64,000 bases of DNA, from NCBI GenBank assembly GCA_034440275.1, contig JAWXBS010000136.1, forward strand, positions 8,152-72,151, given 5' to 3'. This document shows positions 1-60,789 of the stretch, one piece after another (the stretch's first letter is position 1; the number at the start of each line of letters is the position of its first letter). The stretch is from Alphaproteobacteria bacterium (GTDB lineage Bacteria; Pseudomonadota; Alphaproteobacteria; Caulobacterales; Aquidulcibacteraceae). A program made the translations under genes and the position numbers. The notes beneath the pieces were generated by a model. The model did not search any database and was not told the DNA's origin. It saw nothing but the letters and a program-made list of their open reading frames with translations.

Positions 1-669
1 GCATTCCTCGACGACCTTGAGCTTCTGCGACAGGAGGCGGGCGCGGTCGTTGAGTTCGTATTCCTCGGCGAGGGCCGCATGCAGGCGCTGCAGGTCCGGG
101 CGTTCCCACATCATGTCGGGCCGGTCGCTGACCTCGACGCCGCCGACGATGCGCGCCTGCGCGCTCAGCGCGTCGCCCATCATGGAGGCCAGCGTGCGGA
201 AGCGGATGCTCGACCCGCCGGTGAGGGAGAGATCGCGCGCGAACGGCTCGATGCGATCGAAAACGGTTGTCACCTGCTTCTCGTCCTGCGCGAGGGCGAC
301 GCTCTTGGCGAGCGCATCGGCCACGGTCAGCAGACGCTCGTCGGACATGTCGATGAGACCGATGAGATCGCCCGTCACCTGATCGCGCGCGAAGACGCCG
401 GCGGCGATCACCGCACTTTCCGTTTCGCGCACGGCGAACGGATCGACGACGCGCTCCTTGATGCTCTCGATGATCTCGATTTGCGCTGCGCCTTCCACGC
501 CGAAGAAAACGATGGCGCCGAACCGGAAGAGCGCGACGAGCTCGCCGGTCTGCGTGCGCCACGCGAGCGGCGCCGGACTCACCACGCCCTCGGGACGGAA
601 CCCCCGCAGGTCGATGCGCTCGCCCAGCAGAACGGCATGGACCATGAGGGCGTCTGTGGCTTCGGTCAT
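1..669 (-). CDS. RMD1/DUF155 family protein, partial (3' end lies beyond the window start)
   Basis: Mirror of the complete copy at 59998..60789. Only the first 223 codons are inside the window. Confidence 0.8.
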   Translation of the reverse strand, partial: MTEATDALMVHAVLLGERIDLRGFRPEGVVSPAPLAWRTQTGELVALFRFGAIVFFGVEGAAQIEIIESIKERVVDPFAVRETESAVIAAGVFARDQVTGDLIGLIDMSDERLLTVADALAKSVALAQDEKQVTTVFDRIEPFARDLSLTGGSSIRFRTLASMMGDALSAQARIVGGVEVSDRPDMMWERPDLQRLHAALAEEYELNDRARLLSQKLKVVEEC

Positions 670-724
670 GGGGCTGTTTAGCAGGCCCGCGTCACACGCG
701 CACGCACCTGCGGTGATGCGCGAT

Positions 725-2602
725 TCAGTCCCGCGGGTTTTCGGTCCCGGGCGTTCCCGCGACCGCGTCGCCCGGCCGGTGCGGCTTCTGGCGACCGCGT
801 CGGTCCTGGCGTCGCAGTTCCACGAGATAGGCGGCGAGGGCTGCGGAGTCCCCTGCGGTCAGACCCTGGTTGGGCATGGCGACGGTGTCGCCGAGCGATT
901 CCGGATCGGCCAGGAAGCGGGCGAGCGCGGCTTCGTTCCACGCACCGGGCGCGCGCTTCAAGGCGCTGGAATATTCAAAGCCGGCCTCGGCGCCGATATT
1001 GCGCTCGGCGACATTGCGCAGCTGCGGGCCTGCGCTCGCGCCGCCCACGAGGCTGTGGCACTCCGCGCACTGGGCGCCGAAAATCTCGGCGCCGTGACGC
1101 GCGAGCGCGAGGCGTTTCTTCGACAACCCGTTGTCGACGATGTGCGGCACGGTGGCGCTTTCGGCATCGTAGATGCGACCCTTGCCGTGGCCTGCGCCGT
1201 TGCGGAGCAGCACCATGGCGAACCGGTTGTCGAGCACGGCGATGCGGCCGTCCGGCAGCACCTCGATGTCGCGCACCGCGCGGCCCGCCATCCCGATCTG
1301 CTCGGCGTAGATGGCGTCGTTTCCTTCCAGGCGGATGCGGAAGAGACTGCTCGCACGCAGCGAGCCGACGAGAAGATCGCCGCGCCAGTTGGGGAATGCG
1401 TCGCCGGGCGCCTCGACGAGATTGGTGACGCCGATGGACGGCAACCATGCATAGACCGGCGGCTGAAATCCTTCGTGGCGCCCTTCCGTCGTCGCGCCCG
1501 GCCAGGGACGCATGTCGTAGTTCACGCCGTAGGTGACCTTCGGCCACCCGAGGTTCGAGCCTTCATGCACGAGATTGAGTTCGTCGCCGCCGTGCGGCCC
1601 GTGTTCTGTTTCCCAGATGCGACCGCGTGAATCGCGCAGGAGGCCCTGCGCGTTGCGTTCGCCCATGGCGAAGATCGAGGTCTCTCCCGTTTCCTTGTCG
1701 ACGAGCAGGATCTTTCCCATCGTCACCGTGGGGTCCTGCGAGACATCGACGGCGCGGCCTTCGAACACCCACTGATCGCCCACCGTCATCAGCAGATGCT
1801 GCGCGTCGAAATCGAGCATGCGCCCGCCCGAGAGGTGGCCGGCGAACGGGGCGATTTCCTTCGCGTGATCACCGAGGACCGGAAAGCACGGCGTGGCGGT
1901 GAAGATCTTTTTCCATGCACCGGTCTGGCGCACGAGCCCGCCATCGATCGTGATGTCGGTGCGGCTGAGGCGAAACTCCATGCACTCTGGCGTGAACCAG
2001 TGGTGCGTCGCGTAGAGCGTGTAGGCGCCCTCGCCGCGCTTCACTGCGAAGATGTCGTTGATGCGGAACCACTTGCGGTTGAGCCCCGGCGTGTTCCAGA
2101 GGGGGTGCGCCTTGAACGTGGCGAGGTTGATCGGCGAGGTGATCTCGGCGCGCGTGTGGGCGGCGGTGTTGGTGTCGAGGCCGATGAAGTCGCCCTCCCC
2201 CGTCGCCGCGAGCAGAAAGCCGCCATCGAGCTGCGTCATGGCGCCGGCGCGGGTGGGCGTCGGCGAGAGCGCGATGACGTTCATCTCCAGGTCCTGGAGC
2301 TCGGTCGGAAACTTGACCCACTCCTGCGCCTGGGCGCGCACGGCCGCATCGCCGCGTACCAGCCGGTCGGCCCAGTCGAAGGCGTGATCGACGACCGCCG
2401 TGCCGTAGGCGCGGATGCGTTCGGGTGTGGCCACCTGCCAGAGCGTGGCGCGGATCAGGAAATAGCCGCCGATCATGGCGGCGCCCGTGTAGGCCGCCAG
2501 ATAGAACGCCATCTTCCAGTAGCGTGCGACCATCCGGGGCGCCGCACGAAGCGCGCTGAGGGCTGCGGAGACCCGCAACCAGGATGGCAAACTGAATTTC
2601 AT
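725..2602 (-). CDS. Membrane-anchored PQQ-dependent sugar (sorbosone/aldose) dehydrogenase fused to a C-terminal c-type cytochrome domain
   Basis: 625-aa ORF. It has an N-terminal hydrophobic helix, beta-propeller dehydrogenase motifs (GGDELNLVHEGSNLGWP) and a C-terminal CAECH haem-binding site with a downstream Met-Pro ligand region. Confidence 0.8.
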   Translation of the reverse strand: MKFSLPSWLRVSAALSALRAAPRMVARYWKMAFYLAAYTGAAMIGGYFLIRATLWQVATPERIRAYGTAVVDHAFDWADRLVRGDAAVRAQAQEWVKFPTELQDLEMNVIALSPTPTRAGAMTQLDGGFLLAATGEGDFIGLDTNTAAHTRAEITSPINLATFKAHPLWNTPGLNRKWFRINDIFAVKRGEGAYTLYATHHWFTPECMEFRLSRTDITIDGGLVRQTGAWKKIFTATPCFPVLGDHAKEIAPFAGHLSGGRMLDFDAQHLLMTVGDQWVFEGRAVDVSQDPTVTMGKILLVDKETGETSIFAMGERNAQGLLRDSRGRIWETEHGPHGGDELNLVHEGSNLGWPKVTYGVNYDMRPWPGATTEGRHEGFQPPVYAWLPSIGVTNLVEAPGDAFPNWRGDLLVGSLRASSLFRIRLEGNDAIYAEQIGMAGRAVRDIEVLPDGRIAVLDNRFAMVLLRNGAGHGKGRIYDAESATVPHIVDNGLSKKRLALARHGAEIFGAQCAECHSLVGGASAGPQLRNVAERNIGAEAGFEYSSALKRAPGAWNEAALARFLADPESLGDTVAMPNQGLTAGDSAALAAYLVELRRQDRRGRQKPHRPGDAVAGTPGTENPRD

Positions 2603-3023
2603 GGCGATGACGATCCTGTGATCAGACTATCCACACAATGGGTCGTCGCCCACAGGTGATTCTTCGCGCGCGCGTTCAGGTGGGAGGAGATGCGCCAACG
2701 GAGACAGGCGTTGGATCATATTGGGGCGCAGCGGTGCGAATCGAACGCCGCGACGCCCCTCCCGCCGGTGTTTTCAGCAGCCGCGCCAGCAGCGCCCGAG
2801 GCGACTGCGATCGGCGCAGCGAGCCTTCCCGCCAATCGTTAACGCCTGTCCATGCGCCGTCCCGGCCGAAACGGGTGATGGGCTGCATGGGCATGGCGCC
2901 CCTCGCGCCGTTCAGATGTTTCCCGGGCGGGTTAACGTGTTTCCCAAGACCCTTCACACCTTGTTCACGAAAAAAACTGCCCACCCCCTCCAGGGCCGTT
3001 GACCGACTCTTAGGACACAGGGA

Positions 3024-3039
3024 TCACTATATGTAGCGG
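3024..3039 (+). promoter_or_regulatory. Candidate NrdR box upstream of the RNR gene
   Basis: tcaCTATATGTAGcgg matches 9 of 10 core positions of the NrdR-box consensus CwAtATaTwG. It lies 68 nt upstream of the RNR start codon. Confidence 0.35.
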
Positions 3040-3106
3040 TACAGACAAACACCGACCGCCGGATATAGCGCGTGCGCTCAACGCGACTCCGGTTAAGAAC
3101 AGGTTA

Positions 3107-4993
3107 ATGGAGAGACGGATGTTTCGTAACGAGGCGGTGGCTGCGGCTCCCACAAGACTGGCCGATCACCGTCGCGGGAAGCCCAAGGCGGTCAAGGATC
3201 GACTGGCCCTCGTCAAGAAGATCAAGACCGATCCGTCGCGCGACGCGCTGCTGACGGACTTCGGCAAGACCACGCTGGACGACCGCTATCTGCTGGTCGG
3301 CGAGACCTATCAGGACATGTTCGCCCGGGTCGCCACGGCCTATGCCGACGACCTCGAGCACGGCCAGCGCATCTACGACTACATCTCCCGCCTCTGGTTC
3401 ATGCCGGCGACGCCCGTCCTCTCCAATGGCGGCGCCGATCGCGGCCTGCCGATCTCGTGCTTTCTCAACAGCGTCGGCGACAGCCTCGACCACATCGTCG
3501 ACACTTGGAACGAAAATGTCTGGCTCGCCTCCAATGGCGGCGGCATCGGCACCTATTGGGGTGGCGTGCGCTCCATCGGCGAGAAGGTCGGCCAGAACGG
3601 CCAGACGTCCGGCATCATCCCGTTCATCCACGTGATGGACAGCCTCACGCTCGCCATCAGCCAGGGATCGCTCCGTCGCGGCTCGGCGGCCGTGTATCTC
3701 GACGTGCACCACCCCGAGATCGAGGAATTCCTCGAAATCCGGAAGCCGTCGGGCGATTTCAACCGCAAGTCGCTAAACCTGCACCACGGCATCAACATCT
3801 CCGACGAGTTCATGATCGCGGTGCGCGACGGCACGCCGTTCGGCCTGCGCTCGCCGAAGAACAACGAGGTCGTGAAGCTCACTGACGCCCGCAAGATCTG
3901 GCAGAAGATCATCGAGCTGCGCCTGCAAACGGGCGAGCCCTACATCATCTTCTCCGACACCGTGAACAACCAGATGCCGGCGCACCAGAAACGCCTGGGT
4001 CTGAAGGTCCGCCAAAGCAATCTCTGCTCCGAGATCATGCTCCACACCGGTGTCGACCATCTCGGTCGCGACCGGACGGCCGTGTGCTGCCTGTCTTCGC
4101 TCAACGCGGAGAAGTTCCTCGAATGGGAGAAGGAAGAGGGCTTCCTCGAAGACATCTTCCGCTTCCTCGACAACGTGCTGCAGGATTTCATCGAGCGCGC
4201 ACCGTCGGAAATGGAACGCGCGGTGTATGCGGCGTATCGCGAGCGCAGCGTGGGGCTGGGAGTCATGGGCTTCCACTCCTTCCTGCAGGCGCTGAACGTG
4301 CCGTTTGAATCCGCGATGGCGAAGTCGTGGAACATGAAGATCTTCAAGCATGTGCGCCGTGGCGCGGATGCGGCGAGCGTGAAGCTCGCGCAGGAACGCG
4401 GCCCCTGCCCCGACGCGCAGGAAGCGGGCGTCATGGCGCGCTTCTCCCACAAGCTCGCGATCGCGCCGACGGCGTCGATCTCGATCATCTGCGGCGGCAC
4501 GTCGGCGGGCATCGAACCGATCCCGGCCAACATCTACACGCACAAGACGCTCTCGGGCTCGTTCTCGGTGAAGAACCCCTATCTCGAGGCGCTCATCGAA
4601 TCGAAGGGCAAGAACACCGAGGACATCTGGAACTCGATCCTCGCGAACGAAGGCTCGGTGCAGCACCTGGAATTCCTGAACGACGACGAAAAGGCGGTGT
4701 TCAAGACCGCGTTCGAACTCGACCAGCGCTGGATCATCGAACTCGCCGCCGACCGCACGCCGCTCATCTGCCAGTCGCAGTCGCTCAACATCTTCCTGCC
4801 GGGCGATGTCGATAAGTGGGACCTGCACATGCTGCACTGGATGGCGTGGGAGCAGGGCGTGAAGAGCCTCTACTACTGCCGCTCCAAGAGCGTGCAACGC
4901 GCCGGCTTCGCGCAAGGCGAAGGCATGAAGGCCGAAGCCGCCGCCTATTCGTCGAACAAGACGGATTACGAGGAATGTCTGGCTTGCCAGTGA
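3107..4993 (+). CDS. nrdA: Ribonucleoside-diphosphate reductase large (alpha) subunit, class I type
   Basis: 628-aa ORF with the NLCSEI active-site motif and C-terminal YEECLACQ shuttle cysteines. The start could instead be the Met at 3119. No nrdB-like ORF occurs anywhere in the window. Confidence 0.85.
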   Translation: MERRMFRNEAVAAAPTRLADHRRGKPKAVKDRLALVKKIKTDPSRDALLTDFGKTTLDDRYLLVGETYQDMFARVATAYADDLEHGQRIYDYISRLWFMPATPVLSNGGADRGLPISCFLNSVGDSLDHIVDTWNENVWLASNGGGIGTYWGGVRSIGEKVGQNGQTSGIIPFIHVMDSLTLAISQGSLRRGSAAVYLDVHHPEIEEFLEIRKPSGDFNRKSLNLHHGINISDEFMIAVRDGTPFGLRSPKNNEVVKLTDARKIWQKIIELRLQTGEPYIIFSDTVNNQMPAHQKRLGLKVRQSNLCSEIMLHTGVDHLGRDRTAVCCLSSLNAEKFLEWEKEEGFLEDIFRFLDNVLQDFIERAPSEMERAVYAAYRERSVGLGVMGFHSFLQALNVPFESAMAKSWNMKIFKHVRRGADAASVKLAQERGPCPDAQEAGVMARFSHKLAIAPTASISIICGGTSAGIEPIPANIYTHKTLSGSFSVKNPYLEALIESKGKNTEDIWNSILANEGSVQHLEFLNDDEKAVFKTAFELDQRWIIELAADRTPLICQSQSLNIFLPGDVDKWDLHMLHWMAWEQGVKSLYYCRSKSVQRAGFAQGEGMKAEAAAYSSNKTDYEECLACQ

Positions 4994-5577
4994 TTGCTCG
5001 GCCTCTGCGCCTGTTCATAAGCCACTCGTGGGACCATGAAGGTCACCGTGACGGCCTCGCTGACCTGATCTCCGCAGAGTGGATGAATCCATTTTCTTGG
5101 ATCGATCTATCCGTTCCAAAGGATAACCCACTCCATGTGCGCGGAGACATGGAATTGGAGACCGCTCTAAGGCGGCGCATCGCTGCATCAGACGCGGTTT
5201 TGGCTTTTGCGGGAATATACTCTTCTCGAAGTGATTGGATCGAATTCGAGGTCAAAACCGCTTGGGCGCAATTCAAACCGATCATCGCGGTCCGGCCACG
5301 CGCTCAGCATAAACTGTCACGAGTAGTGATTGATCGTGCCGCTGAAATTGTCGGCTGGAATGGCAACTCTGCTCGAAATGCCATTCTCAAGCACCTCCCC
5401 GAGATCACCCTTGAAGCGGTGCTGCCTCGTCTGCGCCGAAGTGAGCTTGTCGCTAGGACTTTGGCCGCCCGGACCAGTACAGGCTCGCGTCACTTGTACC
5501 CGCTACACACGCACGTTGCGCCAAGATCGAACGGGAGTGCACTGAACGCCCTAAGTTCAAGGGCGCGCTATTGGTGA
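4975..5577 (+). CDS. TIR-like (DUF1863 / ThsB-like) domain protein
   Basis: RLFISHSWDHEGHRD ... SRSDWIEFEVKTAW ... KPIIAVRP ... EIVGWNGNSARNAI follows the layout of TIR-like DUF1863 proteins. The region is AT-richer than its flanks. An alternative GTG start at 4990 overlaps the nrdA TGA (GTGA). The C-terminal ~50 aa look low-complexity. Confidence 0.6.
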   Translation: MSGLPVIARPLRLFISHSWDHEGHRDGLADLISAEWMNPFSWIDLSVPKDNPLHVRGDMELETALRRRIAASDAVLAFAGIYSSRSDWIEFEVKTAWAQFKPIIAVRPRAQHKLSRVVIDRAAEIVGWNGNSARNAILKHLPEITLEAVLPRLRRSELVARTLAARTSTGSRHLYPLHTHVAPRSNGSALNALSSRARYW

Positions 5578-5627
5578 GGCATGGATTGCAGAGAGATTGA
5601 GCACTCTTTGCGAAGAAGATCGAAGTA

Positions 5628-6338
5628 TTACTTCAGCGGTAGCTCAGTTGTATCGGCGGGCGGTGCCTGCGATCCCGGCGCGGGACCGTAGGCGCGCTCG
5701 TACGCGGCCAGCTTGTCACGCAGTGCGCGCTGCGCACTGTCCGCCTCAGCAGACTTCTTCCGCGCCTCGGCGCGCAGGCGCCAATGGCGTTCCTTCACGA
5801 TGTTCTTCTCGTCCGGCTCCTGTCTGAAGAGAGAGTCGGCGTATCGTTCATTCATGACCGCATCCGCCGTCACGGTCAGCAGCGTCGGCCAGATCGACGG
5901 CGCGATGCGGAGGTAGGCCTCCGCCAGCCGTGCGAATTCCCGCGCGCGCGGATAATCGCCGTGCTGCAGCGCGATGCCCGACGCACCGAGCGTCAGATGA
6001 CCGAGTTCGGCCGCATCCGCGGGCGTGCCGTCGGGATCCCAGCGTATCGTCGCAAACGCGGCCTCGATGTCTTCGACCATCGCGCCGCGACGCGCGTCCG
6101 CGACGACCACGCGCGCGGCGTCCTCCGACACGCTCTCGCGCGCGATGGCTTCGGCGTTGTCGCGCTTGGTCCAGCCTCCGAGGCGCGCGTGACGATAGAT
6201 GCTGCTCGGCGAGACCTTCCACCGCTGCGCCAGCTTCCGCGCGGTCGCGCCGCGCTTGTAGGCCTCGCCGATCTCGGCCCAGGCTTCGGGCGTCAGGCGG
6301 TAATAGGTGGCGGGGGCTTGGGGATCGGCGTTGGCCAT
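5628..6338 (-). CDS. Hypothetical protein with an N-terminal helix-turn-helix
   Basis: 236-aa ORF. ATARKLAQRWKVSPSSIYRHARLGGW is an HTH-like segment. The rest is Ala/Arg-rich and helical, and I cannot assign it to a family. Confidence 0.55.
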   Translation of the reverse strand: MANADPQAPATYYRLTPEAWAEIGEAYKRGATARKLAQRWKVSPSSIYRHARLGGWTKRDNAEAIARESVSEDAARVVVADARRGAMVEDIEAAFATIRWDPDGTPADAAELGHLTLGASGIALQHGDYPRAREFARLAEAYLRIAPSIWPTLLTVTADAVMNERYADSLFRQEPDEKNIVKERHWRLRAEARKKSAEADSAQRALRDKLAAYERAYGPAPGSQAPPADTTELPLK

Positions 6339-6432
6339 GGGGGTGCTCCTCTGAAAGAGTGGAGCATGGCGCCGTGCGGGACCCGGTCGGATTGCGACGT
6401 GAGAATCCCCGTATTTCGACCTCTAAACTCCC

Positions 6433-6458
6433 CCTTCTCCCCCTCACGGGGGAGAAGG
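6433..6458. repeat. REP-like hairpin CCTTCTCCCCC-tcac-GGGGGAGAAGG
   Basis: 11-bp perfect stem read directly. It overlaps the stop of the 154-aa ORF and belongs to the CCCTCNCCC/GGGNGAGGG family seen at 13599, 13640, 13722 and 14926. Confidence 0.7.
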
Positions 6459-6908
6459 AACACTTCGCTTGGCTCTCGATTGAATGATCGAGCTTTCTTC
6501 ATCATCAGAATTCTGAAGGGACGACTTCAGCTTGTCCTCGGCGACGCCGGTCGCGAACTCCCCTGCAACATCAGCAGCATCTGGTCCTTCGCTGGTGGTC
6601 ACCTGCGAAGAAGTCGTCGTGGGCTTCTGCGCCAGCAGCCCACCACCGAGATCATCGGAAGATGTTGCTCCAGCTCGCTCAAGATCATCGAGTGGGCCTT
6701 TGGCGCCATTCTTGGCGCCGCGAATAACATCATCTGTTGCAGCAACTGCGCGCTCGGCGGGACGAACCAGATGCCGGCCCACGTCATCAACATGATGAGC
6801 GCCGAAAAAAAGCACCTTGATCGCAACTAAGCCAGCGATCGCGAACACCCCCGCTACGACCTTCCCAAGAATGGATTGGGACTCTTCAGCCACCCCCTCA
6901 ATCCTCAT
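6444..6908 (-). CDS. Hypothetical single-pass membrane protein with an acidic Ser/Thr/Asp-rich tail
   Basis: 154-aa ORF with one hydrophobic helix ([19 protein letters not shown]). The start overlaps the lepA stop by 11 nt. The sequence is AT-richer than the flanks. Confidence 0.45.
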
Positions 6909-8706
6909 CCATCTTCAACGCCGCGATGAACGCCTCTTGCGGAATATCCACCTTCCCGAATTGCCGCATCTTCTTCTTCCCCTCTTTCTGCTTGTCGAGG
7001 AGCTTGCGCTTGCGGGAGATGTCGCCGCCGTAGCATTTCGCGGTCACGTCCTTGCGCAGCGCTGAGATGGTTTCGCGCGCGATGATGCGGCCGCCAATCG
7101 CGGCTTGAATTGGTATTTTAAACAAATGCTGCGGGATCAGCTCCTTGAGCTTCTCGCACATCACGCGCCCGCGCTGTTCGGCGCGACCGGCGTGGACGAG
7201 CATGGAGAGCGCGTCGACCGGCTCGTCGTTCACGAGGATCGACATCTTCACGAGATTGCCGGGCTTGTAGTCCTCGATCGCGTAATCGAAGGAGGCATAG
7301 CCCTTCGAGACGCTCTTCAGCCGGTCATAGAAATCGAACACCACTTCGTTGAGCGGCAGTTCGTAGATCAGCATGGCGCGCGCGCCGACATAGGAGAGAT
7401 CGCGCTGTACGCCGCGGCGATCCTGGCAGAGCTTGAGGATGGCGCCGAGATATTCGTCGGGCGTGAGGATGGTGGCCTTGATCCACGGCTCGTGGATTTC
7501 GTTGATGCGCGTGGTGTCGGGCATGTCGGCGGGGTTGTGCAGTTCGCGGATTTCGCCGTCGTTCATGTGGACTTTGTAAACGACGCTCGGCGCGGTCGCG
7601 ATGAGGTCGAGATTGAACTCGCGTGTCAGCCGCTCCTGGATGATTTCCAGGTGCAGCAATCCAAGAAAGCCGCAGCGGAAGCCGAAGCCGAGCGCGGCGG
7701 ACGTCTCCATTTCATACGAGAAGCTCGCATCGTTGAGGCGCAAGCGGCCCATGGCGGCGCGCAGGTCTTCGAAATTCGCCGCATCCGTCGGGAAGAGGCC
7801 GCAGAAGACCACGGGTTGCGCGGGCTTGAAGCCCGAGAGCGCGGTCGTGACGCCGCCCTTCTCGAGGGTGATGGTGTCGCCCACGCGCGCGTCGGCGACT
7901 TCCTTGATGTTGGCGATGAGGAAGCCGATTTCGCCGGGGCCGAGATCGTCGACGTCCTGCGCCTTCGGGCGGAAGACGCCGACCTTGTCGACGCCGTAGG
8001 TGGAGTCGGTCTGCATCATCTTGATGCGCATGCCCTTCTTGAGCACGCCGTCGATGACGCGCACGAGCACGACGACGCCCATATACGCGTCGTACCAGGC
8101 GTCCACGAGCATGGCTTTCAGCGGCTTGGTCGCGTCGCCTTCCTTGGGCGGCGGCAGGCGCGTGACGATGGCTTCCAGCACGTCCTCGATGCCGATGCCG
8201 GTTTTCGCGGAGATGAGGACGGCGTTGGAGGCGTCGAGGCCGATGACGTCCTCGATCTGGTCGCGGATGCGATCGGGCTCGGCGGCGGGGAGATCGATCT
8301 TGTTGAGGACGGGGACGATTTCCAGATTGTTGTCGAGCGCTTGATAGACATTGGCCAGAGTCTGCGCTTCCACGCCCTGCGATGCATCGACGACAAGCAA
8401 TGCGCCTTCGCACGCGGCGAGGCTGCGGCTCACCTCATAGGCGAAGTCCACGTGGCCGGGGGTGTCGATGAGGTTCAGCACATAGTCGAGGCCGTCATGG
8501 GCCTTGTAGTCGAGGCGGACGGTCTGGGCCTTGATGGTGATGCCGCGCTCGCGCTCGATGTCCATCGAGTCGAGGACCTGCTCCTTCATCTCGCGCGCCT
8601 GCAGGCCGCCCGTGAACTGGATCAGCCGGTCCGACAGGGTCGATTTGCCGTGGTCGATGTGCGCCACGATCGAAAAATTGCGGATGCGGTCGATGGGAAA
8701 TGACAT
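6898..8706 (-). CDS. lepA: Elongation factor 4 (translational GTPase LepA)
   Basis: 602 aa counted from [28 protein letters not shown], with the GTPase motifs DTPGHVDF and NKID. The longer 875-aa track ORF is an upstream read-through. Confidence 0.95.
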
Positions 8707-8859
8707 GGCGCGGGAGGTAACACCGCCCCCCGCCCCCGCCAAGGCGGCGACGCCCAAGGGACATTGCGGCGGATTCACCTCCCCGCTGGCGCGCTCGCTC
8801 GCGTCCGCAGCAGCGCCCGTATAGGCTTCGGTCCGACTGTTTCCGTTCGAGGACCGCCC

Positions 8860-9489: not shown

Positions 9490-9558
9490 AGATGCGCATC
9501 GGGAACCGCCGGCCGGCCGACGCATTTCCTCCCTGTCCCATCAAGGAGGCTTCAGGCC

Positions 9559-10176: not shown

Positions 10177-10209
10177 AACCCGGCAAAGTTCTGGACTTTC
10201 ATCTCATCA

Positions 10210-51807: not shown

Positions 51808-51960
51808 GGGCGGTCCTCGAACGGAAACAGTCGGACCGAAGCCTATACGGGCGCTGCTGCGGACGCGAGCGAGCGCGCCAGCGGGGAGGTGAATCCGCCG
51901 CAATGTCCCTTGGGCGTCGCCGCCTTGGCGGGGGCGGGGGGCGGTGTTACCTCCCGCGCC

Positions 51961-53769
51961 ATGTCATTTCCCATCGACCGCATCCGCAATTTTTCGATCG
52001 TGGCGCACATCGACCACGGCAAATCGACCCTGTCGGACCGGCTGATCCAGTTCACGGGCGGCCTGCAGGCGCGCGAGATGAAGGAGCAGGTCCTCGACTC
52101 GATGGACATCGAGCGCGAGCGCGGCATCACCATCAAGGCCCAGACCGTCCGCCTCGACTACAAGGCCCATGACGGCCTCGACTATGTGCTGAACCTCATC
52201 GACACCCCCGGCCACGTGGACTTCGCCTATGAGGTGAGCCGCAGCCTCGCCGCGTGCGAAGGCGCATTGCTTGTCGTCGATGCATCGCAGGGCGTGGAAG
52301 CGCAGACTCTGGCCAATGTCTATCAAGCGCTCGACAACAATCTGGAAATCGTCCCCGTCCTCAACAAGATCGATCTCCCCGCCGCCGAGCCCGATCGCAT
52401 CCGCGACCAGATCGAGGACGTCATCGGCCTCGACGCCTCCAACGCCGTCCTCATCTCCGCGAAAACCGGCATCGGCATCGAGGACGTGCTGGAAGCCATC
52501 GTCACGCGCCTGCCGCCGCCCAAGGAAGGCGACGCGACCAAGCCGCTGAAAGCCATGCTCGTGGACGCCTGGTACGACGCGTATATGGGCGTCGTCGTGC
52601 TCGTGCGCGTCATCGACGGCGTGCTCAAGAAGGGCATGCGCATCAAGATGATGCAGACCGACTCCACCTACGGCGTCGACAAGGTCGGCGTCTTCCGCCC
52701 GAAGGCGCAGGACGTCGACGATCTCGGCCCCGGCGAAATCGGCTTCCTCATCGCCAACATCAAGGAAGTCGCCGACGCGCGCGTGGGCGACACCATCACC
52801 CTCGAGAAGGGCGGCGTCACGACCGCGCTCTCGGGCTTCAAGCCCGCGCAACCCGTGGTCTTCTGCGGCCTCTTCCCGACGGATGCGGCGAATTTCGAAG
52901 ACCTGCGCGCCGCCATGGGCCGCTTGCGCCTCAACGATGCGAGCTTCTCGTATGAAATGGAGACGTCCGCCGCGCTCGGCTTCGGCTTCCGCTGCGGCTT
53001 TCTTGGATTGCTGCACCTGGAAATCATCCAGGAGCGGCTGACACGCGAGTTCAATCTCGACCTCATCGCGACCGCGCCGAGCGTCGTTTACAAAGTCCAC
53101 ATGAACGACGGCGAAATCCGCGAACTGCACAACCCCGCCGACATGCCCGACACCACGCGCATCAACGAAATCCACGAGCCGTGGATCAAGGCCACCATCC
53201 TCACGCCCGACGAATATCTCGGCGCCATCCTCAAGCTCTGCCAGGATCGCCGCGGCGTACAGCGCGATCTCTCCTATGTCGGCGCGCGCGCCATGCTGAT
53301 CTACGAACTGCCGCTCAACGAAGTGGTGTTCGATTTCTATGACCGGCTGAAGAGCGTCTCGAAGGGCTATGCCTCCTTCGATTACGCGATCGAGGACTAC
53401 AAGCCCGGCAATCTCGTGAAGATGTCGATCCTCGTGAACGACGAGCCGGTCGACGCGCTCTCCATGCTCGTCCACGCCGGTCGCGCCGAACAGCGCGGGC
53501 GCGTGATGTGCGAGAAGCTCAAGGAGCTGATCCCGCAGCATTTGTTTAAAATACCAATTCAAGCCGCGATTGGCGGCCGCATCATCGCGCGCGAAACCAT
53601 CTCAGCGCTGCGCAAGGACGTGACCGCGAAATGCTACGGCGGCGACATCTCCCGCAAGCGCAAGCTCCTCGACAAGCAGAAAGAGGGGAAGAAGAAGATG
53701 CGGCAATTCGGGAAGGTGGATATTCCGCAAGAGGCGTTCATCGCGGCGTTGAAGATGGATGAGGATTGA
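51961..53769 (+). CDS. lepA: Elongation factor 4 (LepA), mirror copy
   Basis: Exact mirror of 6898..8706. The ATG at 51961 was read directly (atgtcatttcccatcgac). Confidence 0.95.
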
Positions 53770-54223
53770 GGGGGTGGCTGAAGAGTCCCAATCCATTCTT
53801 GGGAAGGTCGTAGCGGGGGTGTTCGCGATCGCTGGCTTAGTTGCGATCAAGGTGCTTTTTTTCGGCGCTCATCATGTTGATGACGTGGGCCGGCATCTGG
53901 TTCGTCCCGCCGAGCGCGCAGTTGCTGCAACAGATGATGTTATTCGCGGCGCCAAGAATGGCGCCAAAGGCCCACTCGATGATCTTGAGCGAGCTGGAGC
54001 AACATCTTCCGATGATCTCGGTGGTGGGCTGCTGGCGCAGAAGCCCACGACGACTTCTTCGCAGGTGACCACCAGCGAAGGACCAGATGCTGCTGATGTT
54101 GCAGGGGAGTTCGCGACCGGCGTCGCCGAGGACAAGCTGAAGTCGTCCCTTCAGAATTCTGATGATGAAGAAAGCTCGATCATTCAATCGAGAGCCAAGC
54201 GAAGTGTTCCTTCTCCCCCGTGA
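53759..54223 (+). CDS. Hypothetical single-pass membrane protein, mirror copy
   Basis: Exact mirror of 6444..6908. Confidence 0.45.
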
Positions 54224-54234
54224 GGGGGAGAAGG
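54209..54234. repeat. REP-like hairpin, mirror copy
   Basis: Exact mirror of 6433..6458. Confidence 0.7.
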
Positions 54235-54328
54235 GGGAGTTTAGAGGTCGAAATACGGGGATTCTCACGTCGCAATCCGACCGGGTCCCGCACGGCGCCA
54301 TGCTCCACTCTTTCAGAGGAGCACCCCC

Positions 54329-55039
54329 ATGGCCAACGCCGATCCCCAAGCCCCCGCCACCTATTACCGCCTGACGCCCGAAGCCTGGGCCGAGATCGGC
54401 GAGGCCTACAAGCGCGGCGCGACCGCGCGGAAGCTGGCGCAGCGGTGGAAGGTCTCGCCGAGCAGCATCTATCGTCACGCGCGCCTCGGAGGCTGGACCA
54501 AGCGCGACAACGCCGAAGCCATCGCGCGCGAGAGCGTGTCGGAGGACGCCGCGCGCGTGGTCGTCGCGGACGCGCGTCGCGGCGCGATGGTCGAAGACAT
54601 CGAGGCCGCGTTTGCGACGATACGCTGGGATCCCGACGGCACGCCCGCGGATGCGGCCGAACTCGGTCATCTGACGCTCGGTGCGTCGGGCATCGCGCTG
54701 CAGCACGGCGATTATCCGCGCGCGCGGGAATTCGCACGGCTGGCGGAGGCCTACCTCCGCATCGCGCCGTCGATCTGGCCGACGCTGCTGACCGTGACGG
54801 CGGATGCGGTCATGAATGAACGATACGCCGACTCTCTCTTCAGACAGGAGCCGGACGAGAAGAACATCGTGAAGGAACGCCATTGGCGCCTGCGCGCCGA
54901 GGCGCGGAAGAAGTCTGCTGAGGCGGACAGTGCGCAGCGCGCACTGCGTGACAAGCTGGCCGCGTACGAGCGCGCCTACGGTCCCGCGCCGGGATCGCAG
55001 GCACCGCCCGCCGATACAACTGAGCTACCGCTGAAGTAA
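54329..55039 (+). CDS. HTH-containing hypothetical protein, mirror copy
   Basis: Exact mirror of 5628..6338. Confidence 0.55.
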   Translation: MANADPQAPATYYRLTPEAWAEIGEAYKRGATARKLAQRWKVSPSSIYRHARLGGWTKRDNAEAIARESVSEDAARVVVADARRGAMVEDIEAAFATIRWDPDGTPADAAELGHLTLGASGIALQHGDYPRAREFARLAEAYLRIAPSIWPTLLTVTADAVMNERYADSLFRQEPDEKNIVKERHWRLRAEARKKSAEADSAQRALRDKLAAYERAYGPAPGSQAPPADTTELPLK

Positions 55040-55089
55040 TACTTCGATCTTCTTCGCAAAGAGTGCTCAATCTCTCTGCAATCCATGCC

Positions 55090-55692
55090 TCACCAATAGC
55101 GCGCCCTTGAACTTAGGGCGTTCAGTGCACTCCCGTTCGATCTTGGCGCAACGTGCGTGTGTAGCGGGTACAAGTGACGCGAGCCTGTACTGGTCCGGGC
55201 GGCCAAAGTCCTAGCGACAAGCTCACTTCGGCGCAGACGAGGCAGCACCGCTTCAAGGGTGATCTCGGGGAGGTGCTTGAGAATGGCATTTCGAGCAGAG
55301 TTGCCATTCCAGCCGACAATTTCAGCGGCACGATCAATCACTACTCGTGACAGTTTATGCTGAGCGCGTGGCCGGACCGCGATGATCGGTTTGAATTGCG
55401 CCCAAGCGGTTTTGACCTCGAATTCGATCCAATCACTTCGAGAAGAGTATATTCCCGCAAAAGCCAAAACCGCGTCTGATGCAGCGATGCGCCGCCTTAG
55501 AGCGGTCTCCAATTCCATGTCTCCGCGCACATGGAGTGGGTTATCCTTTGGAACGGATAGATCGATCCAAGAAAATGGATTCATCCACTCTGCGGAGATC
55601 AGGTCAGCGAGGCCGTCACGGTGACCTTCATGGTCCCACGAGTGGCTTATGAACAGGCGCAGAGGCCGAGCAATCACTGGCAAGCCAGACAT
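55090..55692 (-). CDS. TIR-like (DUF1863 / ThsB-like) protein, mirror copy
   Basis: Exact mirror of 4975..5577. Confidence 0.6.
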   Translation of the reverse strand: MSGLPVIARPLRLFISHSWDHEGHRDGLADLISAEWMNPFSWIDLSVPKDNPLHVRGDMELETALRRRIAASDAVLAFAGIYSSRSDWIEFEVKTAWAQFKPIIAVRPRAQHKLSRVVIDRAAEIVGWNGNSARNAILKHLPEITLEAVLPRLRRSELVARTLAARTSTGSRHLYPLHTHVAPRSNGSALNALSSRARYW

Positions 55693-57560
55693 TCCTCGTA
55701 ATCCGTCTTGTTCGACGAATAGGCGGCGGCTTCGGCCTTCATGCCTTCGCCTTGCGCGAAGCCGGCGCGTTGCACGCTCTTGGAGCGGCAGTAGTAGAGG
55801 CTCTTCACGCCCTGCTCCCACGCCATCCAGTGCAGCATGTGCAGGTCCCACTTATCGACATCGCCCGGCAGGAAGATGTTGAGCGACTGCGACTGGCAGA
55901 TGAGCGGCGTGCGGTCGGCGGCGAGTTCGATGATCCAGCGCTGGTCGAGTTCGAACGCGGTCTTGAACACCGCCTTTTCGTCGTCGTTCAGGAATTCCAG
56001 GTGCTGCACCGAGCCTTCGTTCGCGAGGATCGAGTTCCAGATGTCCTCGGTGTTCTTGCCCTTCGATTCGATGAGCGCCTCGAGATAGGGGTTCTTCACC
56101 GAGAACGAGCCCGAGAGCGTCTTGTGCGTGTAGATGTTGGCCGGGATCGGTTCGATGCCCGCCGACGTGCCGCCGCAGATGATCGAGATCGACGCCGTCG
56201 GCGCGATCGCGAGCTTGTGGGAGAAGCGCGCCATGACGCCCGCTTCCTGCGCGTCGGGGCAGGGGCCGCGTTCCTGCGCGAGCTTCACGCTCGCCGCATC
56301 CGCGCCACGGCGCACATGCTTGAAGATCTTCATGTTCCACGACTTCGCCATCGCGGATTCAAACGGCACGTTCAGCGCCTGCAGGAAGGAGTGGAAGCCC
56401 ATGACTCCCAGCCCCACGCTGCGCTCGCGATACGCCGCATACACCGCGCGTTCCATTTCCGACGGTGCGCGCTCGATGAAATCCTGCAGCACGTTGTCGA
56501 GGAAGCGGAAGATGTCTTCGAGGAAGCCCTCTTCCTTCTCCCATTCGAGGAACTTCTCCGCGTTGAGCGAAGACAGGCAGCACACGGCCGTCCGGTCGCG
56601 ACCGAGATGGTCGACACCGGTGTGGAGCATGATCTCGGAGCAGAGATTGCTTTGGCGGACCTTCAGACCCAGGCGTTTCTGGTGCGCCGGCATCTGGTTG
56701 TTCACGGTGTCGGAGAAGATGATGTAGGGCTCGCCCGTTTGCAGGCGCAGCTCGATGATCTTCTGCCAGATCTTGCGGGCGTCAGTGAGCTTCACGACCT
56801 CGTTGTTCTTCGGCGAGCGCAGGCCGAACGGCGTGCCGTCGCGCACCGCGATCATGAACTCGTCGGAGATGTTGATGCCGTGGTGCAGGTTTAGCGACTT
56901 GCGGTTGAAATCGCCCGACGGCTTCCGGATTTCGAGGAATTCCTCGATCTCGGGGTGGTGCACGTCGAGATACACGGCCGCCGAGCCGCGACGGAGCGAT
57001 CCCTGGCTGATGGCGAGCGTGAGGCTGTCCATCACGTGGATGAACGGGATGATGCCGGACGTCTGGCCGTTCTGGCCGACCTTCTCGCCGATGGAGCGCA
57101 CGCCACCCCAATAGGTGCCGATGCCGCCGCCATTGGAGGCGAGCCAGACATTTTCGTTCCAAGTGTCGACGATGTGGTCGAGGCTGTCGCCGACGCTGTT
57201 GAGAAAGCACGAGATCGGCAGGCCGCGATCGGCGCCGCCATTGGAGAGGACGGGCGTCGCCGGCATGAACCAGAGGCGGGAGATGTAGTCGTAGATGCGC
57301 TGGCCGTGCTCGAGGTCGTCGGCATAGGCCGTGGCGACCCGGGCGAACATGTCCTGATAGGTCTCGCCGACCAGCAGATAGCGGTCGTCCAGCGTGGTCT
57401 TGCCGAAGTCCGTCAGCAGCGCGTCGCGCGACGGATCGGTCTTGATCTTCTTGACGAGGGCCAGTCGATCCTTGACCGCCTTGGGCTTCCCGCGACGGTG
57501 ATCGGCCAGTCTTGTGGGAGCCGCAGCCACCGCCTCGTTACGAAACATCCGTCTCTCCAT
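55674..57560 (-). CDS. nrdA: Ribonucleoside-diphosphate reductase alpha subunit, mirror copy
   Basis: Exact mirror of 3107..4993. Confidence 0.85.
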   Translation of the reverse strand: MERRMFRNEAVAAAPTRLADHRRGKPKAVKDRLALVKKIKTDPSRDALLTDFGKTTLDDRYLLVGETYQDMFARVATAYADDLEHGQRIYDYISRLWFMPATPVLSNGGADRGLPISCFLNSVGDSLDHIVDTWNENVWLASNGGGIGTYWGGVRSIGEKVGQNGQTSGIIPFIHVMDSLTLAISQGSLRRGSAAVYLDVHHPEIEEFLEIRKPSGDFNRKSLNLHHGINISDEFMIAVRDGTPFGLRSPKNNEVVKLTDARKIWQKIIELRLQTGEPYIIFSDTVNNQMPAHQKRLGLKVRQSNLCSEIMLHTGVDHLGRDRTAVCCLSSLNAEKFLEWEKEEGFLEDIFRFLDNVLQDFIERAPSEMERAVYAAYRERSVGLGVMGFHSFLQALNVPFESAMAKSWNMKIFKHVRRGADAASVKLAQERGPCPDAQEAGVMARFSHKLAIAPTASISIICGGTSAGIEPIPANIYTHKTLSGSFSVKNPYLEALIESKGKNTEDIWNSILANEGSVQHLEFLNDDEKAVFKTAFELDQRWIIELAADRTPLICQSQSLNIFLPGDVDKWDLHMLHWMAWEQGVKSLYYCRSKSVQRAGFAQGEGMKAEAAAYSSNKTDYEECLACQ

Positions 57561-57627
57561 TAACCTGTTCTTAACCGGAGTCGCGTTGAGCGCACGCGCT
57601 ATATCCGGCGGTCGGTGTTTGTCTGTA

Positions 57628-57643
57628 CCGCTACATATAGTGA
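57628..57643 (-). promoter_or_regulatory. Candidate NrdR box, mirror copy
   Basis: Exact mirror of 3024..3039. Confidence 0.35.
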
Positions 57644-58064
57644 TCCCTGTGTCCTAAGAGTCGGTCAACGGCCCTGGAGGGGGTGGGCAGTTTTTTTCGT
57701 GAACAAGGTGTGAAGGGTCTTGGGAAACACGTTAACCCGCCCGGGAAACATCTGAACGGCGCGAGGGGCGCCATGCCCATGCAGCCCATCACCCGTTTCG
57801 GCCGGGACGGCGCATGGACAGGCGTTAACGATTGGCGGGAAGGCTCGCTGCGCCGATCGCAGTCGCCTCGGGCGCTGCTGGCGCGGCTGCTGAAAACACC
57901 GGCGGGAGGGGCGTCGCGGCGTTCGATTCGCACCGCTGCGCCCCAATATGATCCAACGCCTGTCTCCGTTGGCGCATCTCCTCCCACCTGAACGCGCGCG
58001 CGAAGAATCACCTGTGGGCGACGACCCATTGTGTGGATAGTCTGATCACAGGATCGTCATCGCC

Positions 58065-59942
58065 ATGAAATTCAGTTTGCCATCCTGGTTGCGGGTCTCC
58101 GCAGCCCTCAGCGCGCTTCGTGCGGCGCCCCGGATGGTCGCACGCTACTGGAAGATGGCGTTCTATCTGGCGGCCTACACGGGCGCCGCCATGATCGGCG
58201 GCTATTTCCTGATCCGCGCCACGCTCTGGCAGGTGGCCACACCCGAACGCATCCGCGCCTACGGCACGGCGGTCGTCGATCACGCCTTCGACTGGGCCGA
58301 CCGGCTGGTACGCGGCGATGCGGCCGTGCGCGCCCAGGCGCAGGAGTGGGTCAAGTTTCCGACCGAGCTCCAGGACCTGGAGATGAACGTCATCGCGCTC
58401 TCGCCGACGCCCACCCGCGCCGGCGCCATGACGCAGCTCGATGGCGGCTTTCTGCTCGCGGCGACGGGGGAGGGCGACTTCATCGGCCTCGACACCAACA
58501 CCGCCGCCCACACGCGCGCCGAGATCACCTCGCCGATCAACCTCGCCACGTTCAAGGCGCACCCCCTCTGGAACACGCCGGGGCTCAACCGCAAGTGGTT
58601 CCGCATCAACGACATCTTCGCAGTGAAGCGCGGCGAGGGCGCCTACACGCTCTACGCGACGCACCACTGGTTCACGCCAGAGTGCATGGAGTTTCGCCTC
58701 AGCCGCACCGACATCACGATCGATGGCGGGCTCGTGCGCCAGACCGGTGCATGGAAAAAGATCTTCACCGCCACGCCGTGCTTTCCGGTCCTCGGTGATC
58801 ACGCGAAGGAAATCGCCCCGTTCGCCGGCCACCTCTCGGGCGGGCGCATGCTCGATTTCGACGCGCAGCATCTGCTGATGACGGTGGGCGATCAGTGGGT
58901 GTTCGAAGGCCGCGCCGTCGATGTCTCGCAGGACCCCACGGTGACGATGGGAAAGATCCTGCTCGTCGACAAGGAAACGGGAGAGACCTCGATCTTCGCC
59001 ATGGGCGAACGCAACGCGCAGGGCCTCCTGCGCGATTCACGCGGTCGCATCTGGGAAACAGAACACGGGCCGCACGGCGGCGACGAACTCAATCTCGTGC
59101 ATGAAGGCTCGAACCTCGGGTGGCCGAAGGTCACCTACGGCGTGAACTACGACATGCGTCCCTGGCCGGGCGCGACGACGGAAGGGCGCCACGAAGGATT
59201 TCAGCCGCCGGTCTATGCATGGTTGCCGTCCATCGGCGTCACCAATCTCGTCGAGGCGCCCGGCGACGCATTCCCCAACTGGCGCGGCGATCTTCTCGTC
59301 GGCTCGCTGCGTGCGAGCAGTCTCTTCCGCATCCGCCTGGAAGGAAACGACGCCATCTACGCCGAGCAGATCGGGATGGCGGGCCGCGCGGTGCGCGACA
59401 TCGAGGTGCTGCCGGACGGCCGCATCGCCGTGCTCGACAACCGGTTCGCCATGGTGCTGCTCCGCAACGGCGCAGGCCACGGCAAGGGTCGCATCTACGA
59501 TGCCGAAAGCGCCACCGTGCCGCACATCGTCGACAACGGGTTGTCGAAGAAACGCCTCGCGCTCGCGCGTCACGGCGCCGAGATTTTCGGCGCCCAGTGC
59601 GCGGAGTGCCACAGCCTCGTGGGCGGCGCGAGCGCAGGCCCGCAGCTGCGCAATGTCGCCGAGCGCAATATCGGCGCCGAGGCCGGCTTTGAATATTCCA
59701 GCGCCTTGAAGCGCGCGCCCGGTGCGTGGAACGAAGCCGCGCTCGCCCGCTTCCTGGCCGATCCGGAATCGCTCGGCGACACCGTCGCCATGCCCAACCA
59801 GGGTCTGACCGCAGGGGACTCCGCAGCCCTCGCCGCCTATCTCGTGGAACTGCGACGCCAGGACCGACGCGGTCGCCAGAAGCCGCACCGGCCGGGCGAC
59901 GCGGTCGCGGGAACGCCCGGGACCGAAAACCCGCGGGACTGA
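58065..59942 (+). CDS. PQQ-dependent sugar dehydrogenase-cytochrome c fusion, mirror copy
   Basis: Exact mirror of 725..2602. Confidence 0.8.
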   Translation: MKFSLPSWLRVSAALSALRAAPRMVARYWKMAFYLAAYTGAAMIGGYFLIRATLWQVATPERIRAYGTAVVDHAFDWADRLVRGDAAVRAQAQEWVKFPTELQDLEMNVIALSPTPTRAGAMTQLDGGFLLAATGEGDFIGLDTNTAAHTRAEITSPINLATFKAHPLWNTPGLNRKWFRINDIFAVKRGEGAYTLYATHHWFTPECMEFRLSRTDITIDGGLVRQTGAWKKIFTATPCFPVLGDHAKEIAPFAGHLSGGRMLDFDAQHLLMTVGDQWVFEGRAVDVSQDPTVTMGKILLVDKETGETSIFAMGERNAQGLLRDSRGRIWETEHGPHGGDELNLVHEGSNLGWPKVTYGVNYDMRPWPGATTEGRHEGFQPPVYAWLPSIGVTNLVEAPGDAFPNWRGDLLVGSLRASSLFRIRLEGNDAIYAEQIGMAGRAVRDIEVLPDGRIAVLDNRFAMVLLRNGAGHGKGRIYDAESATVPHIVDNGLSKKRLALARHGAEIFGAQCAECHSLVGGASAGPQLRNVAERNIGAEAGFEYSSALKRAPGAWNEAALARFLADPESLGDTVAMPNQGLTAGDSAALAAYLVELRRQDRRGRQKPHRPGDAVAGTPGTENPRD

Positions 59943-59997
59943 ATCGCGCATCACCGCAGGTGCGTGCGCGTGTGACGCGGGCCTGCTAAACAGCCCC

Positions 59998-60789
59998 ATG
60001 ACCGAAGCCACAGACGCCCTCATGGTCCATGCCGTTCTGCTGGGCGAGCGCATCGACCTGCGGGGGTTCCGTCCCGAGGGCGTGGTGAGTCCGGCGCCGC
60101 TCGCGTGGCGCACGCAGACCGGCGAGCTCGTCGCGCTCTTCCGGTTCGGCGCCATCGTTTTCTTCGGCGTGGAAGGCGCAGCGCAAATCGAGATCATCGA
60201 GAGCATCAAGGAGCGCGTCGTCGATCCGTTCGCCGTGCGCGAAACGGAAAGTGCGGTGATCGCCGCCGGCGTCTTCGCGCGCGATCAGGTGACGGGCGAT
60301 CTCATCGGTCTCATCGACATGTCCGACGAGCGTCTGCTGACCGTGGCCGATGCGCTCGCCAAGAGCGTCGCCCTCGCGCAGGACGAGAAGCAGGTGACAA
60401 CCGTTTTCGATCGCATCGAGCCGTTCGCGCGCGATCTCTCCCTCACCGGCGGGTCGAGCATCCGCTTCCGCACGCTGGCCTCCATGATGGGCGACGCGCT
60501 GAGCGCGCAGGCGCGCATCGTCGGCGGCGTCGAGGTCAGCGACCGGCCCGACATGATGTGGGAACGCCCGGACCTGCAGCGCCTGCATGCGGCCCTCGCC
60601 GAGGAATACGAACTCAACGACCGCGCCCGCCTCCTGTCGCAGAAGCTCAAGGTCGTCGAGGAATGCGCGAGCGCGCTGGTGGGATTTGCCGACGCGCGGC
60701 GGGCCTATCACCTGGAATGGACGATCATCATCCTGATCGCGTTCGAGATCATTCTCACTTTGCTGGAAAAGGCGGGGGTGATTAGCTGA
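59998..60789 (+). CDS. RMD1/DUF155 family protein (complete copy; crosses the end of the mirrored region at 60666)
   Basis: 263 aa with a DUF155-like body and a C-terminal TM helix (HLEWTIIILIAFEIILTLL). Its last 41 codons lie in the single-copy flank. Confidence 0.8.
   Translation: MTEATDALMVHAVLLGERIDLRGFRPEGVVSPAPLAWRTQTGELVALFRFGAIVFFGVEGAAQIEIIESIKERVVDPFAVRETESAVIAAGVFARDQVTGDLIGLIDMSDERLLTVADALAKSVALAQDEKQVTTVFDRIEPFARDLSLTGGSSIRFRTLASMMGDALSAQARIVGGVEVSDRPDMMWERPDLQRLHAALAEEYELNDRARLLSQKLKVVEECASALVGFADARRAYHLEWTIIILIAFEIILTLLEKAGVIS

Follow-up and report, generated by a model that had tools for sequence, protein, structure and literature searches.

The first 60,666 bp of the 64,000-bp stretch of DNA analysed here (the window) form a perfect palindrome. 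We consider this palindrome, with a probability of about 0.93, to be an artefact in which one single-copy chromosomal segment has been written twice, with a false junction centred on a native 16-bp palindrome inside a gene. The host is an uncultivated Caulobacterales bacterium of the Lake Vanda microbial mats. An earlier note on this DNA had also named an artefact as the most likely origin. The native continuation found in independent assemblies and in related species supports that view.

The symmetry was confirmed by a base-by-base test, in which none of the 30,333 mirrored pairs was mismatched. Base x is complementary to base 60667-x over positions 1..60666, and there is no spacer, just as the earlier note had claimed. 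The self-blastn check that it proposed gave the predicted result, a single reverse-strand match of 1..60666 against 60666..1 with 100 % identity and 0 gaps. The mirrored ORF pairs that it quoted have correct coordinates, but its mirror of 3001..3020 was misplaced by one base (57647..57666 in our self-comparison, not 57648..57667). Chance cannot generate a symmetry of 60,666 bp. The left arm (1..30333) is the exact reverse complement of the right arm (30334..60666). It is limited only by the start of the window, as had been pointed out before. The boundary at 60666 therefore mirrors window position 1 and is not biological. The right arm is collinear with a native single-copy chromosome segment and runs on into an unmirrored tail (60667..64000), which is an ordinary chromosome continuation and is 100 % identical to many native contigs. 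The axis between 30333 and 30334 reads ...AACGTGGTGCGCGCG/CGCGCGCACCACGTT... (here and below, the slash marks the axis), and the fold-back junction sequence is GCAACGTGGTGCGCGCG/CGCGCGCACCACGTTGC. It is the sole non-native adjacency within the window. No second inversion junction or return to a native flank is found within the window, where the left arm runs off the start.

The native arrangement was derived from contigs of the same organism, independently assembled from many Lake Vanda (Antarctica) mat metagenomes and 99.99–100 % identical to the window at the nucleotide level. Contigs L019 and L021 match the window from 30326 to 46942 and 40011, respectively. The left arm is matched in reverse orientation (e.g. 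by L019, L021, and L001). At the other end, L001 and L009–L012 match 50915/51787..64000 and are unbroken across 60666/60667. Native contigs that reach the axis match the right arm down to 30326, and complete divergence follows. These contigs are from JGI 3300020195 (L019/L023) and Logan SRR6448206 (L021), which represent different samples and different assemblers. The native junction sequence is GTTCGCGCCAT/TGCGCGCGCGCGCGCACC, and the native continuation reads GCGCCAT-TGCGCGCGCGCGCGCA. An intact gene for a 229-aa protein is called at the axis site in L019/L023, L021, and L024–L028. The native genes beyond it encode a short-chain dehydrogenase (adh_short), a GNAT acetyltransferase, a glyoxalase-family protein, and a PBP1-type protein. 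All of these are absent from the window.

We also looked up the subtilisin-family (S8) protease gene that lies next to the axis. Among the matches listed, every contig with this gene that reaches the site carries the intact 229-aa gene, and none has non-native neighbours beside the S8 gene; the look-up was repeated with flanks of 1000 and 2500 bp, and its collapsed 'similar places' could hide a palindromic contig. The junction 34-mer has no match in genome_contigs, metagenome_contigs, or viral_contigs. The metagenome_contigs result is uninformative, because the native 36-mer used as a positive control is unmatched there too; that collection is evidently without these Lake Vanda samples.

Across the axis site, three GTDB genomes that belong to other species of Caulobacterales show the native gene order as well. 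In one of these (L030), collinearity extends over 11.7 kb, with 83 % nucleotide identity. Orthologues of the 229-aa protein, with 86–90 % identity, continue ...VRARAQWREQLAN, and the native downstream codons are common to the three relatives. Among its three points against a real duplication, the earlier note had named a truncated CDS at 29929 that continues into different sequence in relatives or alternative assemblies. This CDS does so in the independent assemblies as well as in the related species. On these alignments, we show that the join at the axis is not native, as it is missing from every independent assembly inspected and from all three relatives. The native order in other samples may, formally, be compatible with an event specific to the source sample.

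The continuation of the chromosome past the axis bears directly on the possibility that a linear replicon ends here in a covalently closed hairpin telomere, or that the axis is a replicated dimer junction or a pair of joined terminal inverted repeats. Read-through of a hairpin end would yield a perfect spacer-less palindrome, and hairpin telomeres are present in some Alphaproteobacteria (Agrobacterium). However, native contigs and relatives have the site inside a conserved CDS, with at least 10 kb of chromosome beyond it. The surrounding genes are chromosomal housekeeping genes. A Pfam search of the window's 20 main ORFs found no telomere resolvase of the TelA/ResT/TelN type, and the only tyrosine recombinase among them has the XerC/D architecture. 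We rejected a telomere or joined terminal repeats at this site and regard this explanation as having almost no chance of being correct.

The native 16-bp perfect palindrome, TGCGCGCG/CGCGCGCA, occupies positions 30326..30341, and the fold-back axis lies at its exact centre. The same 16-mer is present in the native contigs L019 and L021, which diverge completely from the window leftward of it. Reading of the native sequence shows that its symmetry ends at ±8 bp, with none at positions ±9 to ±14. Palindromes with 8-bp arms occur three times in 43,094 bp, this one included, and longer ones do not occur. Of the other two, one is located at window position 56939 and one at coordinate 25987 of the native frame, within the native flank to the left of the axis. 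The probability that the axis would coincide with a 16-bp palindrome by chance is approximately 7e-5, thus suggesting that the fold-back began there and disfavouring a random fragment end. The single-stranded 16-mer is predicted to form a hairpin of −6.9 kcal/mol, with 6 bp in the stem and 4 nt in the loop. The 36-nt native context gives a competing structure without a significant z-score, so the hairpin energy speaks for plausibility only and is not evidence.

Fold-backs at fragment ends are not expected to strike a 16-bp palindrome to the base, whereas the axis of the window does. Of the routes to an artefact suggested earlier, a missed hairpin adapter and template-complement read-through are therefore disfavoured, while the artefact itself stands. 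The palindrome-centred axis favours self-priming or self-annealing followed by a mirrored assembler walk. In library preparation or in amplification, a single strand whose end lies in or near this self-complementary 16-mer could anneal to itself or to a sister strand. Polymerase extension of the annealed strands would give chimeric molecules whose sequence enters the palindrome and leaves it on the opposite strand. The k-mers of these molecules would create an inverted loop in the assembly graph. An assembler that walks this loop would return along the same path, so that the arms could reach any length and would not diverge at all. A long-read or multiple-displacement amplification (MDA) fold-back read nucleated at the same palindrome could produce the same artefact.

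A purely in-silico inverted loop, arising from the native sequence at k of at least 21, was also considered and rejected. Such a loop needs a perfect palindrome of k-1 bases, whereas the native one in the window is only 16 bp long and loses its symmetry beyond ±8 bp. Chimeric molecules would therefore have to supply extra fold-back k-mers. One point against the artefact is that the assembler would have taken a fold-back edge, which is presumably rare, over the native continuation.

The data that could be retrieved for this organism consist entirely of Illumina 2x151 short reads. The SRR64482xx runs come from a Lake Vanda mat data set that was generated from KAPA HyperPrep libraries, sequenced as Illumina 2x151 reads, and assembled with MEGAHIT (PMC11080526). 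If the window was likewise built from short reads, then the 30-kb arm length arises from the assembly graph and is uninformative about any molecule. De Bruijn-graph assemblers yield 'lonely inverted loops' and palindromic unitigs, the latter emitted in full by both SPAdes and MEGAHIT (Rahman & Medvedev 2022, PMC9528984), and the assemblers behind the retrievable data are of the MEGAHIT or SPAdes type, as in these precedents. In SPAdes assemblies of M. bovis, a high-GC organism, 81 whole-contig palindromes were judged to be assembly errors (PMC9455707). High G+C content is shared by those contigs and the window. Palindromic contigs from de Bruijn graphs also resemble the window in their build: a sequence is followed by its reverse complement, the two strands have the same set of genes, and the copies do not diverge.

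Chimeric reads that arise in library preparation and are centred on natural palindromes or inverted repeats have been described under the PDSM model (Chen et al. 2024, PMC10908179). As in the window, the original strand is followed by its inverted complement, and the switch occurs at a naturally occurring palindrome. The PDSM chimeras are, however, single short reads from human capture libraries, whereas the product here is a contig of more than 60 kb.

By another route, the same artefact could stem from a single ONT or PacBio fold-back long read, or from an inverted chimera produced by MDA through self-priming at the 16-bp palindrome, that was then assembled and polished. Both arms would be corrected by the same reads and would thus be identical. 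In ONT reads of genomic DNA, fold-back artefacts that arise in library preparation make up as much as 0.61 % (Heinz, Meyerson & Li 2026, PMC12870357). Whole-genome amplification produces artificial palindromic long reads (Pacasus, PMC6218980). Such reads resemble the window in that they join the two strands of a single locus end to end with near-perfect symmetry, and an axis on a native palindrome fits self-priming. However, every retrievable data set is Illumina short-read, and the window is 100 % identical to the assemblies made from these data. Moreover, a molecule with arms of at least 30 kb would have to be a chimera longer than 60 kb. We therefore consider the long-read or MDA route unlikely, though it deserves some weight.

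A real structure would imply that, in a sub-population, the (CG)-rich 16-bp palindrome very recently nucleated a snap-back inverted duplication in vivo, by symmetrical tandem inversion duplication or by ODIRA. The former has reportedly been described in Salmonella by Kugelberg and colleagues in 2010. Long spacer-less palindromes are not stably maintained in bacteria (SbcCD), which counts against such a duplication. In yeast ODIRA, junctions lie at short native palindromes, as snap-back and template-switch models predict (PMC4689423). A junction at a short native palindrome is thus also predicted by in-vivo snap-back, and the position of the axis does not separate in-vitro from in-vivo origins. 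The Salmonella and ODIRA cases reportedly also resemble the window in their perfect symmetry before remodelling. Zero divergence fits a very recent event, and the window by itself holds nothing to the contrary.

The comparison with these cases breaks down elsewhere. The Salmonella and ODIRA rearrangements were reportedly demonstrated in genomic DNA and have two junctions with the native flanks kept. The window has one visible junction, its native flank (including the PBP1-type gene) is missing, and neither a second junction nor a return to native sequence is visible. The native junction is found in all independent assemblies of the same population that show the site, and in the three related species. 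Arms of 30 kb would carry no information about real molecules if the data are short reads. A real duplication is therefore highly improbable. If it were nevertheless true, the structure in the window would be either a symmetrical tandem inversion duplication or a replication intermediate capped by a hairpin, sampled from a natural Antarctic community before it was remodelled. Such a natural record of the unstable precursor that has been proposed for inverted duplications would be rare.

Under the fold-back artefact, which we prefer, several genes are distorted by the mirror. The gene cut at the axis is represented by the first 135 codons of the conserved 229-aa protein (29929..30333, plus strand), with a mirror copy at 30334..30738 on the minus strand. 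The truncated protein has no family match in Pfam. The adjacent S8 protease gene (30907..32976, plus strand; 689 aa; Pfam Peptidase_S8, E = 6e-50) is a real gene, and an identical version of its product is present on 23 contigs. Its mirror copy lies at 27691..29760 on the minus strand. A 1039-aa ORF at 29857..32976 (plus strand) is a chimera: it starts with the truncated gene, reads on through the antisense strand of that gene, and is fused in frame to the S8 protease. The mirror counterpart of this ORF occupies 27691..30810 (minus strand), and both are annotation artefacts. For the three possible starts of this chimeric ORF, we found no record of a gene product of 1015, 1030, or 1039 aa.

In all, the artefact doubles approximately 30 kb of single-copy housekeeping genes. 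The lepA gene (51961..53769, plus strand; 602 aa) has a Pfam match and is called as a gene in L001. It is a single-copy housekeeping gene that is doubled by the mirror alone, its twin being at 6898..8706 on the minus strand. Pfam likewise bore out the doubling of the other housekeeping genes named previously, namely the xerC/D-type recombinase, aroK/aroB, and the ribonucleotide reductase large subunit. The two 1039-aa fusion ORFs are fictitious, and the true neighbours of the truncated gene are masked. If the mirror is kept in a genome bin, then estimates of contamination and duplication and counts of accessory genes would be inflated, as reported for M. bovis (PMC9455707).

The main value of the finding thus lies in quality control. 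Comparison of the axis with a native assembly is a simple diagnostic, and here it places the axis, to the exact base, on a 16-bp palindrome that occurs naturally. This position favours chimeras primed at the palindrome over random fragment ends.

Neither an Rfam scan (30000..64000) nor a tRNA scan (the entire window) gave a hit. A DUF155 gene (59998..60789) ends inside the unmirrored tail (60667..64000), which also contains an EamA transporter gene, a signal peptidase I gene, and a GNAT gene. The sole further repeat in the self-BLAST is a weak one of 247 bp with 74 % identity.

The base-by-base test showed that all 30,333 of the 30,333 pairs formed by base x and base 60667-x are complementary, with zero mismatches and no spacer at the axis (30333|30334), which reads ...AACGTGGTGCGCGCG|CGCGCGCACCACGTT.... 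Self-BLAST of the window gave a single reverse-strand match (1..60666 / 60666..1, 100 % identity, gap-free) and no other notable match. The perfect spacer-less palindrome over 1..60666 described in the earlier note is therefore real as an observation. The mirrored ORF pairs cited there have the right coordinates; the pairing of 3001..3020 with 57648..57667 was off by one, the true mirror being 57647..57666. Identity between the left and right copies of the arm is complete. The right limit at 60666 is merely the mirror image of the window start and so does not fix the arm length. We conclude that the palindrome is almost certainly a fold-back artefact and not a feature of the genome.

By exact-protein look-up, each of the window genes queried occurs on 16 to 23 contigs from many samples (JGI 3300020195, 3300020219, 3300015360, 3300020057, 3300020186, 3300021515 and 3300022222; ENA ERZ505514; Logan assemblies of SRR6448204-19 and SRR6831528). 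The window is 99.99-100 % identical to these loci by BLAST. A study of the pinnacles in benthic mats of Lake Vanda (Antarctica) cites run SRR6448204; its libraries were made with KAPA HyperPrep, sequenced on an Illumina HiSeq (2x151) and assembled with MEGAHIT (PMC11080526).

The join at the axis is not native. Other assemblies of the same organism supply contigs L019/L023 (JGI 3300020195, 31.4 kb) and L021 (Logan SRR6448206), which align with the right arm from 46942 and 40011, respectively, to 30326, eight bases beyond the axis. Left of 30326 they have nothing in common with the window. The window truncates the gene at 29929..30333 after 135 codons; the same gene is complete, at 229 aa, in L019/L023, L021, L024-L028 and L033-L037. 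It is followed natively by genes for a short-chain dehydrogenase, a GNAT acetyltransferase, a 192-aa ORF, a glyoxalase-family protein and a PBP1-type protein, none of which is present in the window. Three other species keep the native order across the axis site, and their downstream codons are likewise the native ones (...VVRARAQWREQLAN); L030, from a related species, is collinear over 11.7 kb at 83 % nucleotide identity. Continuation of the CDS at 29929 into different sequence, as found in independent assemblies and relatives, is one of the three findings that the earlier note had named as together refuting a real duplication. That an authentic snap-back inverted duplication, of the ODIRA type or a symmetrical tandem inversion duplication, arose here very recently is very improbable, since the native junction occurs in all independent same-population assemblies that show the site and in relatives, and since the window contains neither a second junction nor the native flank. 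Long spacer-less palindromes are also unstable in bacteria, which further counts against such a duplication. Two further readings, a telomere with a hairpin end and terminal repeats joined to each other, are refuted: the gene that contains the site is conserved, and natively the chromosome runs on past it.

The exact-protein look-up found no record of the chimeric 1039-aa ORF across the axis (29857..32976, +). The 34-mer of the fold-back junction had zero matches in three searchable contig collections. For one of these, metagenome_contigs, this negative is uninformative because the native 36-mer, which JGI contigs carry, is equally missing from it; this collection and the look-up resource differ in the samples they cover, so negatives from metagenome_contigs need a positive control. 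In a single assembly, L035 (1..63; JGI 3300021515, Ga0163145_1000064, 48.7 kb), the short-chain dehydrogenase adjoining the 229-aa gene has a called length of 154 aa and not 308 aa. A frameshift, a sequence variant or a further local misassembly roughly 1 kb away from the site of the axis could account for this.

The native sequence at the site, ...GCGCCAT TGCGCGCG|CGCGCGCA CCACGTT..., contains a perfect 16-bp palindrome (window 30326..30341; L019 4434..4449; L021 1036..1051) whose centre is the window axis, to the base. In a native reference of 43,094 bp (L023, right arm and tail), perfect palindromes reach arms of 8 bp at most, and just three are of that size; the chance of a random breakpoint at the centre of such a palindrome is about 7e-5. 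The position of the axis exactly on so rare an element argues that the fold-back was nucleated by it. Routes that break at arbitrary fragment ends are thereby disfavoured, among them the missed hairpin (SMRTbell) adapter and the template-complement read-through named in the earlier note. A short palindrome at the junction is likewise predicted for a real snap-back duplication (PMC4689423), and this feature does not discriminate between the two. As single-stranded DNA, the 16-mer is predicted to fold into a hairpin (6-bp stem, 4-nt loop; -6.9 kcal/mol), a value that speaks to plausibility only. The element is (CG)-rich and falls within the codons for V-R-A-R-A-Q of the conserved 229-aa protein, which has no Pfam family. 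One or two substitutions in the same codons disrupt it in related species (GCGCGCGCGCGCAC in L030, GCGCGCCCGCGCGC in L031/L032).

The artefact probably began with chimeras, which would have arisen when strands annealed to themselves or to a sister strand at the palindrome and were filled in by a polymerase. Such chimeras at natural palindromes have been documented for Illumina libraries, both those fragmented by sonication and those fragmented by enzymes (PMC10908179). Their k-mers would put an inverted loop into the de Bruijn graph. Given such a loop, SPAdes and MEGAHIT emit palindromic unitigs whole and ABySS splits them (PMC9528984); 81 whole-palindrome contigs in SPAdes assemblies of high-GC M. 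bovis were judged assembly errors by their authors (PMC9455707). Symmetry of the native sequence ends at +/-8 bp around the axis, so the native palindrome alone makes no loop at k >=21 and extra fold-back k-mers are required. If the source was short reads, a read would span the axis by a few hundred bases at most, and the 30-kb arms would be a return walk on the same graph path, uninformative on any molecule; this would account for their zero divergence. An alternative, less probable route to the artefact is fold-back at the same palindrome in long reads (PMC12870357) or during MDA (PMC6218980). The known data sets of this organism are all Illumina short-read. The sole use of the palindrome is as a quality-control flag.

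The main ORFs represent ordinary chromosomal content by Pfam scans: S8 protease, Fe-alcohol dehydrogenase, HpcH-type aldolase, M19 dipeptidase, XerC/D-type recombinase, aroK/aroB, CNNM/CorC transporter, Zn-alcohol dehydrogenase, TonB-dependent receptor, lepA, ribonucleotide reductase large subunit, PQQ-type dehydrogenase with a cytochrome c domain, DUF155 protein, EamA transporter and signal peptidase I. The arm has a G+C content of 65.7 %. The tRNA scan found no tRNA gene in the window, and the Rfam scan no family in 30000..64000. The nearest GTDB genomes are metagenome-assembled, labelled Hyphomonadaceae and Caulobacteraceae, with 86-90 % identity for the protein at the axis. A 533-aa ORF without a Pfam match (40076..41677, -), kept in all assemblies of the organism, lies directly upstream of the recombinase gene (39127..40071, -) on the same strand. 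Two neighbouring genes of the EipA family (PF06577) have a direct repeat of 247 bp in common, at 74 % identity (50515..50758 and 51202..51445; mirrors 9909..10152 and 9222..9465), and both contigs of JGI 3300020195 over this region stop at about 51,684, within the second paralogue.

Over 16.6 kb, the window differs from L019 at only two positions, 45212 and 45588 (A/C, T/C; mirrors 15455 and 15079), with the same allele on both arms. Both lie within the glutathione S-transferase gene and so represent sample-level polymorphism; L020 likewise differs at two positions. At least five independent assemblies (Ga0163146_10000037, Ga0163150_10005000, ERZ505514 NODE_114, Ga0163144_10000546 and Ga0163151_10001020) stop within about 180 bp of one another, some 4.9-5.0 kb past the window end (window-equivalent 68,850..69,030, derived from contig look-ups and BLAST), which suggests a repeat or strain-variable region just beyond the window.
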